Shown: positions 418-5,462, counted from the stretch's first letter. The stretch: DNA of 5,740 bases from a virus (IMGVR_UViG_2547132274_000013); one strand, 5' to 3'. Made by a program: numbers and translations. The notes: generated by a model not told the origin, from the letters alone.

Positions 418-666
418 ATGCCAGTGACATTTGAAGAAGTCCAGCAACATAAAAAGCTTCATGATTTTGATGATCTGGAAACCACGACAGTAAAAAAATA
501 TCGCCGGCTGCTTTCTTCCGATGCGTTATTTTTTGTGGATCATCATGATTTTCTGCGTAGCTCACTGACCGGGGAAATTTTCGCAACCAACCGTGAGCAG
601 GTGGAAGCGATGATCGAATATCTGTGGAAAATAAGGCGCAGAATGCGTGATCCCGTGAAACGGTAG
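418..666 (+). CDS. hypothetical protein (82 aa), co-transcribed with the PerC-like gene
   Basis: Strong RBS AGGAGG at 408-413 with ATG at 418; stop TAG at 664-666 lies 4 nt before the terminator hairpin. The ORF track extends to 379, but there is no RBS there. I do not recognise a family. Confidence 0.55.
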   Translation: MPVTFEEVQQHKKLHDFDDLETTTVKKYRRLLSSDALFFVDHHDFLRSSLTGEIFATNREQVEAMIEYLWKIRRRMRDPVKR

Positions 667-669
667 AAT

Positions 670-704
670 AATAATGGCCTGGTATTTTCCAGGCCATTAT
701 TTTT
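670..704. terminator. Bidirectional intrinsic terminator between convergent genes
   Basis: Perfect 13-bp inverted repeat AATAATGGCCTGG (670-682) / CCAGGCCATTATT (689-701) with a 6-nt loop TATTTT, flanked by T-rich sequence on the + strand and A/T-rich sequence on the other. It sits exactly between the stop of 418..666 (+) and the stop of 703..1176 (-). Confidence 0.75.
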
Positions 705-1176
705 AGAAGTCGATCTCTGTATCGCGATTAAATTCATCGCTAAGGTAAAGTGCTTCGCTTGGGCATTTTCCGTTTTCCAGTAATGTTTCCCAGAAATCTT
801 TATCGAAACACCCCTCAAGATACAGATAGCGACAGATGTGAAGTAAATCACTTCGTGTCCATCCGTGCATGCTGCTACTTGTTACACCATATTCACTTTC
901 TAGTTTATAGAATGTGAGCGCCTCCCGGTCGTGCCAGGCTTTGCACAGACGATCGTATATCTTTTTAGCTTTGTTTTTAGATGTGCCGAAAAACTCTTCG
1001 TAAATTTCATGTGGGCGAGTAGGAATACTTCCGTCGCCATCCTGCAAGAAAGGATAAACATCTGCCTCCCAGGCATACACGTAAGAATCGCTGAACTCAT
1101 CATAGTGTTTACCAAGGTGGAGAATCTGCAATCGTTGCTGAATGAACATTGCTTTTTTCAGTTCATTTTCTGACAT
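703..1176 (-). CDS. hypothetical protein (157 aa), divergently oriented cargo gene of unknown function
   Basis: Minus-strand ORF with ATG (complement of 1174-1176) preceded by AGGAGG (complement of 1185-1190, 8-nt spacer); stop is the complement of 703-705. GC content looks lower (roughly low 40s % by eye) than the flanking capsid operon (about 50%). The protein is acidic (about 29 D/E versus 18 K/R) and aromatic-rich. No HTH or known catalytic motif recognised. Confidence 0.7.
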   Translation of the reverse strand: MSENELKKAMFIQQRLQILHLGKHYDEFSDSYVYAWEADVYPFLQDGDGSIPTRPHEIYEEFFGTSKNKAKKIYDRLCKAWHDREALTFYKLESEYGVTSSSMHGWTRSDLLHICRYLYLEGCFDKDFWETLLENGKCPSEALYLSDEFNRDTEIDF

Positions 1177-1210
1177 AGTTCGTTCCTCCTGATTGACGAG
1201 CAGAAAATGT

Positions 1211-1321
1211 ACGGAACAGCTTATTTATTTTTTCAGGTTTTGTAAATTATTTGTTCGTGGTTGTTCCAGGTTGTTCGGTGATTCTGGCTGATGTTTACAT
1301 ACTGATTTTTATGTATATGTT
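1211..1321. promoter_or_regulatory. Divergent control region: three phased 10-bp direct repeats flanked by outward-facing -35-like hexamers
   Basis: TTGTTCGTGG / TTGTTCCAGG / TTGTTCGGTG at 1251-1260, 1261-1270, 1271-1280, with exact 10-bp periodicity. Leftward: -35-like TTTACA (complement of 1241-1246), 17-bp spacer, -10-like TAAGCT (complement of 1218-1223), reading toward the minus-strand gene. Rightward: TTTACA at 1294-1299 and a weak -10 candidate TATGTT at 1316-1321, reading toward the capsid gene. The hexamers are weak; the repeats are unambiguous. Confidence 0.4.
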
Positions 1322-2665: not shown

Positions 2666-3226
2666 ATGAAAAATACCGATTTTGAAATCCGTACATCTGA
2701 ACTGACCGCCAGCGATAAAAAACTGGTGGGTTATGCCGTTCGCTGGAACAGCCTTTCAGAAATTATCTGGGACGAATTCCGCGAACAGTTCACGCCGGGG
2801 GCTTTTGCTGACTATCTGGCGGCGGGTAATGATGTGCGCTGCCTGTATGAGCATGACTATACCCGACTGCTGGGGCGCACCAAATCCGGAACACTGGTAC
2901 TGACTGAGGACAACACCGGGCTACGTTTTGAACTGACACCGCCTGATACCCAGCTTGGAAAAGATGTGCTTACGCTGGTGGAGCGAGGCGACATTACAGG
3001 AATGAGCTTTGGCTTTCGCGCATTATGCGAAGAATGGAATATCGCGCAAAAACCGTATCTGCGCACTGTTACCGCCGCAGAACTCCGTGAAATCACGATA
3101 ACGTCAATGCCTGCTTATCCCGAATCCGGCGTGGAGATTGCCCACCGTTCGTTGTTTGCACAGCACCCTGAATTACGCCCGGCAGGAAATAATCGTCATC
3201 GCTGGGCTGAACTGGCGGGGTTGTGA
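2666..3226 (+). CDS. Prohead (maturation) protease, HK97 family (S78/U35-type)
   Basis: ATG at 2666 preceded by GGAG at 2655-2658. Motifs typical of HK97 prohead proteases: YEHDYTRLLGRT with a candidate catalytic His, and GDITGMSFGF with a candidate catalytic Ser. Stop TGA at 3224-3226. The ORF track's upstream extension to 2450 overlaps the capsid gene and is not the real start. Confidence 0.85.
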   Translation: MKNTDFEIRTSELTASDKKLVGYAVRWNSLSEIIWDEFREQFTPGAFADYLAAGNDVRCLYEHDYTRLLGRTKSGTLVLTEDNTGLRFELTPPDTQLGKDVLTLVERGDITGMSFGFRALCEEWNIAQKPYLRTVTAAELREITITSMPAYPESGVEIAHRSLFAQHPELRPAGNNRHRWAELAGL

Positions 3227-3227
3227 T

Positions 3228-4442
3228 ATGTGGTGGCCTTTTAGTCGTAAAAAAAGCGATCTGCGTAACCTGTCCATTGATGATTTTCTGGCGCTGTCCG
3301 GCGTACCGAATACCGGATCCGGAGAATATGTTTCTGCCGGGACGGCTGAATCATTGCCTGCTGTGATGAACGCGGTTTCTGTCATCGCTGAGGCGGTGGC
3401 CACGATGCCGTGTTATCTGTATCTGGTACGTAATGACAAGGGCAGGGAGGCGCGGGAATGGCTGGACAGTCATCCGGTAGATATTCTGCTGAATGAGCAG
3501 CCTAATTCGTGCCAGACACCTTACCAGTTTAAACGCACAATGATGCGTCACTGTCTGCTGAACGGTAACGCCTATGCGGTTATTGAGTGGGGGCAGGACG
3601 GGCAGCCAAAATCACTTCATCCTTATGCGCCGGGGTGTGTTGTACCGGAACGCACAGGCGCACACAAATACCGCTATACCATCACCGAACCCTGTACAGG
3701 AACGGTGCGCACGTATTTACAGGAAGAAGTTCTGCATCTCCGCTATGCCTCGGATGATGGCTTTCTGGGGCGCTCCCCCGTCACTATTTGCCGTGAGGCG
3801 CTGGGGCTTGGCCTTGCTCAACAGCGTCACGGAGCCAGCATTATGAAAGATGGCATGATGGCGGCAGGGATTATCACGTCAGGCGAATGGCTGGACGGTG
3901 TGAAAGGTAAACAGGCATTAGACGCCCTGGAACGCTACAAGGGGGCGAAAAATGCCGGAAAAACGCCAATCCTTGAAGGGGGCATGGATTACAAGCAACT
4001 GGGAATGAGTAACCAGGATGCGGAATGGCTGGCCTCCCGTCGCTTCTCCATTGAAGACATCGCCCGGATGTTCAACGTGTCGCCTATTTTTCTGCAGGAA
4101 TACAGCAACAGCACCTACAGCAATTTCAGTGAGGCAAGCCGCGCGTTTCTGACCATGACAATGCGCCCGTGGCTGGCGAACTTCGAACAGCAAATCAAGG
4201 CCGCTTTGCTGGTGGCTTCTCCCGTACCTGGTACCCGTTATCTGGTTGAGTTTGATTCAGCCGATTTATTACGCGCCACCCCTACCGAACGTTACGCCAC
4301 GTATGAGAAAGGGATTAAGAACGGGATCATGAATCCGAACGAAGCCCGCGAACGTGAGGGGATGCCGCCGCGTGAAGGTGGCGACGAATTCAGCCAGGCA
4401 TGGAAGCAGACGGTGGAAATTAAAGGTGAAAAAGATGAGTGA
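3228..4442 (+). CDS. Phage portal protein, HK97 family
   Basis: ATG at 3228, 1 nt after the protease stop (TGATATG). The 404-aa product has portal-like segments (CLLNGNAYAVIEWG; RRFSIEDIARMFNVSPIFLQEYSNSTYSNFSEASRAFLTMTMRPWLANFEQQ). Stop TGA at 4440-4442. The ORF-track start at 3138 overlaps the protease; 3228 is preferred. Confidence 0.85.
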   Translation: MWWPFSRKKSDLRNLSIDDFLALSGVPNTGSGEYVSAGTAESLPAVMNAVSVIAEAVATMPCYLYLVRNDKGREAREWLDSHPVDILLNEQPNSCQTPYQFKRTMMRHCLLNGNAYAVIEWGQDGQPKSLHPYAPGCVVPERTGAHKYRYTITEPCTGTVRTYLQEEVLHLRYASDDGFLGRSPVTICREALGLGLAQQRHGASIMKDGMMAAGIITSGEWLDGVKGKQALDALERYKGAKNAGKTPILEGGMDYKQLGMSNQDAEWLASRRFSIEDIARMFNVSPIFLQEYSNSTYSNFSEASRAFLTMTMRPWLANFEQQIKAALLVASPVPGTRYLVEFDSADLLRATPTERYATYEKGIKNGIMNPNEAREREGMPPREGGDEFSQAWKQTVEIKGEKDE

Positions 4443-4734
4443 AGAAAAAATTACACCTGATGAAGTCAGGGCACATCTTCGCCTTGATGACTTTTCCGGA
4501 GAAGGCGAACTTCTGAAAATGTATACCGATGCGGCGCTGGAAGCCTGCCAGAAGCACATCGGGAAACGTTTTGAAGACGGTCTGGAATTTACCCCGGCAA
4601 TGCGTGTTGGTTGCCTGATGTACATCGCTTTTCTGTATGAGAACAGGGAAGCGGTTTCACCTGTGGAGCAGTCGGAACTGCCTATGGCTATTTCTGCGCT
4701 CTGGTCAGTTTATCGTGATGTGGGGGTGTATTGA
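4435..4734 (+). CDS. Head-tail connector/adaptor protein, gp6-like (Phage_connect_1-type)
   Basis: ATG at 4435 preceded by AGGTGA at 4423-4428; overlaps the portal stop by 8 nt (ATGAGTGA). The 99-aa product MSEEKITPDEVRAHLRLDDFSGEGELL...FLYENREAVSP matches the gp6-like connector pattern (conserved HLR-x-DD near the N-terminus and YENRE). Confidence 0.8.
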   Translation: MSEEKITPDEVRAHLRLDDFSGEGELLKMYTDAALEACQKHIGKRFEDGLEFTPAMRVGCLMYIAFLYENREAVSPVEQSELPMAISALWSVYRDVGVY

Positions 4735-5174
4735 TGCCGTGGCAACCATTAAGGCGTTGTACTGAACCGGGCTGTAATAAGCGTGTGAAGTCCGGCAAGT
4801 GTGAAGAGCACAGGCGGGCTGCATGGCGTGCAGAGGATGCCAGACGGGGACACCGCCGCGCGCGTGGGTATTCCCGACAGTGGGACAAATACCGCGCCCT
4901 GTATCTGAGCAAAAACCCGTTATGCGTGCGTTGTCTGGCTAAAGGTATTTATACGCCAGCTCTTGTGGTGGATCACATCATTCCCATCAATGGCGGCGGT
5001 GATGTTCTCTTCTGGCCTGAGTGGAATCACCAGGCATTGTGCCAGACGTGCCACAACCGTAAGACGACACGGGAAGATCCAGCCACGAAAGCGAACCGTA
5101 AGGCGGGCATGTATCGCGAGCAGGAAGAACGGGCGGCACATCGTAACGACTGGATGTATGGCGATGATGACTGA
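4734..5174 (+). CDS. HNH endonuclease (terminase-associated, phage packaging type)
   Basis: ATG at 4734 overlaps the connector stop (TGATG). The 146-aa product has Cys-rich zinc-binding and HNH motifs (CTEPGCNKRV...KCEEH; VVDHIIPINGGGD; NHQALCQTCHNRKT). It sits immediately upstream of the small terminase, as in HNH-dependent cos-packaging phages. Confidence 0.85.
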   Translation: MPWQPLRRCTEPGCNKRVKSGKCEEHRRAAWRAEDARRGHRRARGYSRQWDKYRALYLSKNPLCVRCLAKGIYTPALVVDHIIPINGGGDVLFWPEWNHQALCQTCHNRKTTREDPATKANRKAGMYREQEERAAHRNDWMYGDDD

Positions 5175-5462
5175 ACAGGAGCAAAACAGGCTGATACGTG
5201 GACTGATAAGGCAGCGTGACACATGGAAGGCACAGGAGACAGGGCACAAAGCCAACAGGACAGGGCGCACAGAACGCACCACAGCGAAGCGATTAACCGA
5301 CCGTGACCGCGAGGTCATGGAATGTTTTCGCAATCGCTGGTGAGGCCGTCAGAGGGGGTGGGGGAGGTTTTCAGGACGAAACCGTCCCTGCCGGACACCG
5401 ACCGCCTCCTCAAATTTTTGTGCACGGGAATTTTTTTGAAAATAATTGGGCGAAAAAAGAAC
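5175..5462. other. Candidate cos/packaging-recognition region between HNH and terS
   Basis: 288-bp non-coding gap in an otherwise overlapping operon. It contains a G-rich tract GGGGGTGGGGGAGG (about 5354-5367), a dyad GGACG-AAAC-CGTCC (5374-5387), a GTGCAC palindrome (5420-5425) and an A/T tract AATTTTTTTGAAAATAATT (5429-5447) just upstream of terS. The position between HNH and terS matches where cos lies in HK97-like phages. Function is inferred, not shown. Confidence 0.3.

Follow-up and report, generated by a model that had tools for sequence, protein, structure and literature searches.

Phage-inducible chromosomal islands of the capsid-forming kind (cf-PICIs) are recently recognised, widespread, cross-species satellites, and the cargo held in their slots decides what they contribute to their hosts. 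They have been described as elements of approximately 10–18 kb in which integrase, regulation and replication modules are combined with an HK97-type packaging module of their own (capsid, protease, portal, connector, HNH, TerS and TerL), and in which tail and lysis genes are absent (He et al. 2025, 10.1101/2025.02.11.637232). In the same work, variability was noted for the regions before and after the packaging module, which were 'expected to encode immune systems'. Immune hotspots of PICIs are located next to pri, and papers citing Rousset 2022 and Fillol-Salom 2022 credit these studies with describing defence hotspots in satellites. A known class of such cargo is Tai (tail assembly inhibition), which comprises immune proteins encoded by single genes in prophages, P4-like satellites and PICIs; TaiEcA, for example, is the product of phi80 orf63 (He et al. 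2024, PMC11364771). The DNA analysed here, a stretch of 5,740 nucleotides of viral origin (IMGVR_UViG_2547132274_000013) which in its full length is referred to as the window, is part of an E. coli cf-PICI, and directly before the capsid gene it carries a divergently oriented gene encoding a protein of 157 amino acids (703..1176, minus strand), here called X. The comparison with related islands showed that X is a dispensable single-gene cargo in a dedicated exchangeable slot between the replication and regulation genes and the packaging operon.

X occupies an exchangeable cargo slot

When the window was aligned with its relatives, homology was near-perfect up to the terminator downstream of X and resumed at GTTTTGTAAATT (1237), so that the boundaries of the slot were sharp. 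Between them, two islands (L002 and L004) contained nothing, another (L003) contained an unrelated minus-strand gene of 168 amino acids, hereafter alt168, and the window contained X with about 60 bp of additional DNA. Alignment against these empty and differently loaded islands placed the cargo cassette at 707..1236 (approximately 530 bp, consisting of X and about 60 bp upstream of it), the exact boundary being rendered ambiguous by a repeated TTTTT(C)AG. The cassette is flanked by an imperfect AT-rich direct repeat, with its left copy (ATTATTTTTAG, 696..706) read in the sequence and its right copy (ATTTATTTTTTCAG, 1223..1236) in the sequence and the alignment, while the empty site retains a single copy (TTTTTTCAG). 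Since the repeat is of low complexity, it could be coincidental.

The occupancy of the slot was surveyed in 51 related cf-PICI loci, fetched via the capsid gene. About 29 of these were empty, 4 held X and about 12 held a member of the alt168 family, three of the latter as a two-gene operon with a 258-aa gene (258+169 aa). The remaining occupants were a 414-aa DUF3775 gene, found once, and a 506-aa gene present in two more distant islands (L089 and L090); no known function could be assigned to any of these alternatives. In the O157:H7-type lineage, which has been studied experimentally, the slot is empty. The 82-aa backbone gene that borders the slot was detected in 135 of 5,426 complete E. coli genomes, alt168 in 51 and X in 9. 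An earlier note on this DNA, made from the sequence alone, had proposed that X is accessory cargo of a phage satellite and that homologous elements might carry a different gene in its place. Both expectations were borne out by the variable occupants of the 51 loci and the clean boundaries with respect to empty relatives, and X was not found to be conserved in all related elements with the composition of its neighbours.

A further state of the slot was found in E. coli TUM1886 (L137:2930-3200), in which X has undergone a clean in-frame deletion of 423 bp, equivalent to 711-1133 of the window. The scar retains the promoter, the ribosome-binding site (RBS), the first 43 nt (14 codons) of the gene and the terminator. 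It is a decay intermediate of the cargo slot, and the in-frame deletion therefore demonstrates that the cargo can be lost while the slot persists.

The commonest occupant, alt168 (WP_001053661.1; L003:3705-4211, minus strand), matched no Pfam or PADLOC model, and the possibility that it is a relative of X was rejected. In three islands (L086, L103 and L105) it forms a two-gene operon with a gene of 252-258 aa. Both cargoes can be found in one host, as E. coli UMNF18 (NZ_AGTD01000001.1) has this cf-PICI backbone twice, in the vicinity of 1.12 Mb and 2.54 Mb, with X in one copy and alt168 in the other. With X and the 168-aa family, two recurrent slot occupants of no known function are now defined.

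X is a conserved gene with a persistently low GC content

X starts with ATG and is, as the earlier note had it, the only credible minus-strand gene of the window, since all other minus-strand open reading frames (ORFs) fall within plus-strand genes supported by Pfam. Its product is identical or nearly identical to WP_001293446.1, annotated as 'hypothetical protein', and DNA copies of 99.8% identity, also annotated as hypothetical protein, are present in 9 complete E. coli genomes. The length of the protein is steady at about 157 aa, homologues from other genera are 49-63% identical, and the ratio of non-synonymous to synonymous substitution rates (dN/dS) had a median of 0.068 (range 0.03-0.24, 14 pairs), indicative of strong purifying selection. 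The constant length, the cross-genus homologues and the low dN/dS together establish X as a real gene and not a chance ORF.

The GC content of X, which had been judged by eye to be lower than that of the flanking structural genes, was computed as 42.2% (0.424 at third codon positions), compared to 48.6-56.2% for the structural genes (capsid 0.486, protease 0.522, portal 0.537 and HNH 0.562); the conserved 82-aa neighbour is likewise low in GC (0.442). The suggestion that this difference reflects separate acquisition did not hold up. In 24 of 24 islands, the GC content of X was 5-17 points under that of the capsid gene (median -10), and the gene sits in the same slot in other genera. Because of this, the low GC is not evidence of recent acquisition; AT-richness is a persistent trait of the X family, and a recent import of X was rejected. 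The equivalent position was occupied by X in 31 of the 37 IMG/VR loci encoding a relative, as well as in cf-PICIs of Edwardsiella, Serratia and Salmonella, and at all of these same-position loci the gene was divergent from the capsid gene and located approximately 260-290 bp 5' of it. Identity to the window copy amounted to 49-61% where the capsid proteins shared 66-77%.

The X cassette is nevertheless mobile. A copy found in Raoultella is very close to two cf-PICI copies (dN only 0.03-0.05, with about 140 bp of upstream backbone sequence in common) and resides in an island devoid of a capsid operon. This Raoultella planticola island (L005:6707-7843) is satellite-like, encoding integrase, AlpA, AntA and primase, followed by the tail-fibre-like genes Gp53-like_C and Caudo_TAP. 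In it, X is placed directly 3' of a gene with a DUF2971 domain and a match to PDC-S31, one of the candidate defence families of PADLOC (E = 7e-29).

Expression signals and the question of capsid regulation

The strong RBS previously pointed out for X is present as AGGAGG at 1190..1185 (minus strand), 8 nt before the ATG, and a purine-rich RBS occupies the equivalent place in the homologues. At the other end of the gene, a hairpin terminator at 670-701 is common to X and to the 82-aa gene on the plus strand, lying between their convergent stop codons (703 and 666, respectively). The hairpin has a perfect 13-bp stem and a 6-nt loop, with a dG of -21.1 kcal/mol and z-scores of -5.4 (plus strand) and -7.1 (minus strand); it was not picked up by a simple terminator scan. 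Its description as a perfect bidirectional terminator is thus correct for the stem and the overall shape, but the quality is asymmetric, with a good U-run on the plus strand (UUUUU) and a weaker one on the minus strand (AUUAUUC). In a comparison of islands, the terminator variant tracked the presence of cargo. Where the slot held X or alt168, the hairpin was GGCCTGG and was flanked by A/T runs on either side (bidirectional); in the empty-slot islands (L002, L004) it was GGCCCGG instead and had a T-run on the plus side alone.

Upstream of X, a candidate leftward promoter, P_X, was located at 1218..1246 (minus strand), with TTTACA (1246..1241) as -35 element, a 17-nt spacer and TAAGCT (1223..1218) as -10 element. 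It scores under the threshold of a consensus scan; GAACAAATAATTTACAAAAC, with a -10-like TAnnnT 17 nt further on, was found 5' of X in 13 of 16 divergent islands. The -35 motif belongs to backbone DNA and occurs also in relatives with an empty slot or with alt168, for which reason a leftward promoter seems to be built into the islands themselves, with the cargo being exchanged behind it. The view that X brings its own upstream control region was therefore only partly supported: the approximately 60 bp at 1177-1237 are specific to the cassette, but the -35 element is located in backbone shared with empty-slot relatives.

Back-to-back with P_X, a consensus scan identified a candidate promoter of the capsid operon (TTTACA-16-TATGTT, 1294..1321, plus strand), which is situated in that core of the leader where conservation between distant islands is highest. 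Three GAACAA repeats in exact 10-bp phasing (1251..1276, minus strand, with starts at 1251, 1261 and 1271) lie in the backbone between the two divergent promoters. These are the only occurrences of the motif on either strand of the window and they are kept in empty-slot relatives; they resemble an array of binding sites for a regulator of the island, perhaps AlpA or PerC.

The promoter and leader region (1238-1470) was 90-97% identical across the islands of the E. coli group, even where capsid identity was only 69%. Its GC-rich 5' leader (1322-1470) contains a 13-nt direct repeat, CTGCG(C/A)GATGCCG, at 1368 and 1388 as well as nested inverted repeats, and has a minimum free energy of -57 kcal/mol (z -2.2). 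The leader may function as a regulatory RNA or be bound by a protein; Rfam gave no match in the window, this leader included.

The earlier note had considered X as an unusual regulator of the adjacent capsid promoter. Such a role, as a divergently transcribed transcription factor or anti-repressor acting on the capsid and packaging genes, is very improbable, since the leader is conserved at the above level in islands in which the slot is empty or holds other cargo, and since X is also present where there is no capsid operon, namely in plasmids, chromosomal islets and islands without one. The studied O157:H7-type islands moreover do without X, and its acidic isoelectric point (pI) is unfavourable for binding DNA, for which some of its relatives need an added DNA-binding head, as described below.

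X belongs to a previously undescribed acidic, all-alpha protein family

A profile search over 1.84 billion representatives returned 348 clusters at E <= 1e-3, 234 of them at E <= 1e-10, most with a length of 145-160 aa. The X protein itself has a pI of 4.93, with 29 D+E residues against 18 K+R and 15.9% F+W+Y, in line with the acidic and aromatic-rich character read from the sequence, and the family is acidic throughout (median pI 5.0). The AlphaFold2 model of X, with a predicted local distance difference test score (pLDDT) of 90, consists of nine helices. Taken together, X represents an acidic, all-alpha family of about 150 aa that was previously undescribed. No usable match was obtained in Pfam, NCBIfam or PHROG, none at E <= 1 among the known and candidate defence models of PADLOC-DB v2.0.0, and none in the PDB, including solved anti-defence, antitoxin, immunity, anti-CRISPR (Acr) and Aca proteins. 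A Pfam scan of 99 diverse members gave matches in N-terminal heads only and none over the X domain, and all source annotations of family members read 'hypothetical'.

Across the same 99 members, a set of polar residues was conserved: R15 (R or K in all), H56 (81%), E93 (94%), R108 (92%), R116 (90%), Y117 (99%) and E141 (90%), along with several aromatics. This pattern bears on an earlier hint that X might be an RNase effector of the HEPN type by virtue of an R-x(4-5)-H string, three of which are indeed present in this one protein. The arginines of two of these strings, R15 and R108, are conserved, but the paired histidines are not, being found in only 9% (position 20), <6% (position 82) and 14% (position 113) of the members. 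As, in addition, X matched neither a HEPN profile nor the HEPN four-helix fold, the HEPN assignment was rejected and has next to no probability.

Three other candidate relationships were examined. In a comparison with DNA mimics of the Ocr/ArdA kind, X proved to be moderately acidic (net charge about -11, pI 4.9) and without Pfam or PDB homology. Homology to Tai or Ati was rejected, with hhalign probabilities of 0.2% versus TaiEcA (phi80 orf63) and 0.1% versus AtiEcA, and a tblastn search of X against all phages, phi80 included, gave no match. With respect to type II antitoxins, the X of the window lacks both a DNA-binding head and an adjacent toxin gene, the cassette consisting of X, 60 bp and the terminator.

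Fused forms, neighbouring genes and the function of X

An N-terminal DNA-binding head was found in 28 of 176 family representatives (~16%). Most heads were of the ribbon-helix-helix (RHH) type (ERxELRLD...PSRSEAIRRL), others being Phd/YefM, AbrB/MazE or winged helix-turn-helix (HTH_43) domains, with one weak match to Aca2/YdiL. No such head was detected in the window X, either by Pfam or in the AlphaFold2 model, and neither a split RHH head nor a small partner ORF was found near it. The fused forms are solitary genes too, found on plasmids adjoining ParA or Rep3, in a chromosome, where yacG and an acyltransferase gene flank it, and beside a Tn7-like element carrying a Shedu gene. Only one, a MazE-X fusion, is followed by a gene, part of which is weakly MazF-like. 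For the HTH_43-X fusion (P0024), the context was limited to a 948-bp contig and viral relatives were not found. For scanning loci, the diverse alignment A3 proved too divergent.

Outside cf-PICIs, unfused copies are likewise solitary and occur in islands bearing integrase or ParA, in an element resembling an integrative and conjugative element (ICE), in small islets and in a Mu-like element, the latter being the single prophage context of the family. No conserved partner gene was seen across 19 or more contexts, and the small flanking ORFs of L127, L063 and L064 matched no Pfam family. In at least 5 of the 19 loci outside cf-PICIs, a defence gene was found within about 4.8 kb of X, a rate given without a matched background; the genes concerned were a short pAgo with a restriction endonuclease (REase) partner, SduA (Shedu), a type IV REase (mREase_IV), PDC-S31 and PDC-S04. 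When 50,697 phage genomes were searched with four diverse family queries, no match was obtained. The family, which has no annotation or structural relative, links satellites, plasmids, defence islets and antitoxin-type regulators.

The location of X in a hotspot, the defence genes near its relatives and the absence of the family from phages lead us to favour, by analogy with Tai, a reading in which X would confer immunity or interference as a single protein with no need of a partner. We tentatively put the probability of this reading at roughly 0.4. The satellite would make the protein from a promoter of its own, so that expression would not depend on the packaging operon. X would probably bind some macromolecule of a rival phage or element as its target, or alternatively act via a site formed by the conserved polar residues. 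In relatives with a DNA-binding head, the head would simply autoregulate the gene. Several observations weigh against this reading. No known defence model matches X, and a small acidic protein in which no enzymatic or membrane domain can be recognised would be at least equally well explained as an inhibitor, an antitoxin or an immunity protein. Fusions to Phd/YefM, RHH and MazE heads are a signature of antitoxins or of self-regulated anti-defence genes (Acr-Aca), not of known defence effectors, and the association with defence genes in 5 of 19 loci lacks a matched background control. Furthermore, the conserved polar set could reflect catalysis or the binding of a ligand rather than that of a protein.

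Some of these features would instead be expected of a counter-defence protein, i.e. a stoichiometric inhibitor protecting the satellite, and other mobile elements bearing X, upon entry into a new host or induction therein. Such a neutraliser could take the form of an orphan antitoxin-like protein, an immunity protein or a 'sponge' for a small ligand, and could be directed at a host defence protein, at the toxin of an abortive-infection system of the toxin–antitoxin (TA) type, or at an immune signalling molecule; the heads of the relatives would provide Aca-like autorepression. The acidic, aromatic-rich composition of the whole family, the small size, the lack of a catalytic motif of any known family and the solitary occurrence on host-switching elements (satellites, plasmids, ICE-like islands and a Mu-like prophage) all agree with such a role, as do the fusions to antitoxin-type modules (RHH, Phd/YefM and AbrB/MazE), the one Aca2-like match and the MazE-X fusion with its weakly MazF-like follower. 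Most known anti-defence families are phage-borne, however, and the absence of X from the phage genomes argues against a phage-borne anti-defence gene. An adjacent toxin was found neither in the window nor in 4 of 5 fused-form contexts, some copies reside in plain chromosomal islets beside defence genes, and there was no sequence match to a solved anti-defence, antitoxin or immunity protein. We regard counter-defence as less probable than the favoured reading.

The same fusions can be read in the opposite direction, with X as a growth-inhibiting, toxin-like or abortive effector of a TA-type module and the heads, fused or encoded next door, as its antitoxins. X would then be silent in the cf-PICI and be switched on together with the capsid operon at induction, shutting down the host or the helper phage. 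The conserved polar set (R15, H56, E93, R108, R116, Y117 and E141) does suggest an active site, X is divergent from the capsid operon with the phased GAACAA repeats common to both promoters, and an antitoxin-toxin-like gene order is seen in a few loci, where a 68-aa ORF overlaps the start of X (L127) or a gene of the SymE/AbrB fold follows it (L129-131). On the other hand, no antitoxin candidate accompanies about 84% of the members or any of the cf-PICI copies, in which the cassette is X plus 60 bp. The small flanking ORFs match neither the RHH head profile nor any Pfam family, an acidic pI is atypical of TA toxins, and X is not similar to any known toxin fold. We consider this role quite unlikely.

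A more specific proposal, which we also regard as unlikely, would make X the founder of a new fold family and a self-contained single-protein immune or counter-immune module. Its conserved polar and aromatic residues would form a pocket which binds or processes a small ligand or a nucleic-acid end. Forms with RHH, Phd or AbrB heads would be ligand-responsive autoregulators, and the head-less forms of satellites, plasmids and islands sensors or sponges. In cf-PICIs, such cargo would have a site dedicated to its expression, bidirectional and possibly responsive to AlpA. X is a compact candidate for defence or counter-defence, contained in a single gene of 474 bp, and if it proves active it would add a new protein family to the arms-race repertoire of phages and bacteria.

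Genomic setting of the slot

The assignment of the window to a cf-PICI is based on its Pfam domains and on the gene content of an island of approximately 15 kb in E. coli KFu019, within which a stretch 98.8% identical to the window is found. On the plus strand, the window encodes a PerC-family protein (91-372), an HK97-type major capsid protein (Phage_capsid, 1471-2616), an S78 prohead protease (Peptidase_S78, 2666-3226), a portal protein (Phage_portal, 3228-4442), a gp6-like connector (4435-4734), an HNH endonuclease (4734-5174) and, from 5463, a P27-type small terminase (Terminase_4), all identified with Pfam. The 82-aa backbone gene (418..666, plus strand) matches phrog_1957 in PHROG (4.7e-36), is convergent with X and forms the left edge of the slot, which it adjoins in all close relatives. 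The KFu019 island reads, in order, integrase, helix-turn-helix regulators, BRO-N, Icd-like, DUF4222, DUF927 primase, single-stranded DNA-binding protein (SSB), PerC, the 82-aa gene, X, and capsid through to TerL; no tail or lysis genes were found in it. This content is that of the published definition of cf-PICIs.

A second variable slot is seen at 76-417 of the window, between SSB and the 82-aa gene, where otherwise near-identical islands carry nothing, a PerC-family activator or an RNA-binding protein of the ProQ/FinO family. At the other end of the window, a G/C-rich intergenic stretch directly 5' of terS (5341-5462; GGGGGTGGGGGAGG ... CCGCCTCCTC) may contain the cos or packaging site of the island.

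Comparison with known systems

The slot has the same location as the variable regions described for cf-PICIs, directly before the packaging operon, and like them it varies between near-identical islands (He et al. 2025, 10.1101/2025.02.11.637232). The difference is that the published account gives only an expectation for the region, and not the X family, the leftward promoter or the distribution, none of which was found described in our literature searches; searches with the two protein accessions likewise returned nothing. The hotspot is therefore already known, while X as its occupant is new. What was previously only 'expected' to hold immune systems is now shown as an exchange site with a terminator and a putative backbone-encoded promoter.

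With respect to its architecture, X resembles Tai in being a single small gene without a known domain in a satellite or prophage hotspot. In phi80, tai directly precedes the packaging module and is encoded on the other strand, a position like that of X, and its expression does not depend on the late operon. Tai proteins went unrecognised by PADLOC and DefenseFinder before they were tested (PMC11364771). The two differ in that Tai is mostly phage-borne, whereas X was absent from the phage genomes searched, and in that fusions to DNA-binding heads have not been reported for Tai, as opposed to about 16% of the X family.

These fusions bring the family closer to type II antitoxins, in which an N-terminal RHH, Phd/YefM or AbrB-MazE domain is joined to a C-terminal toxin-binding part. 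As in antitoxins of the VapB type, the modules of the X family have been swapped between lineages, and the X family too is acidic. Unlike the short disordered C-terminal tail of antitoxins, though, the X part is a folded domain of 150 aa, and most of its fused forms are solitary. An anti-CRISPR fused to, or paired with, an Aca repressor constitutes a self-regulated anti-defence gene, and the headed relatives of X would be alike in that a solitary effector gene has gained a small repressor-type DNA-binding head, which would serve autoregulation. X differs from the Acr-Aca systems in having no homology to a solved Acr or Aca protein and in belonging to a family that is not phage-borne.

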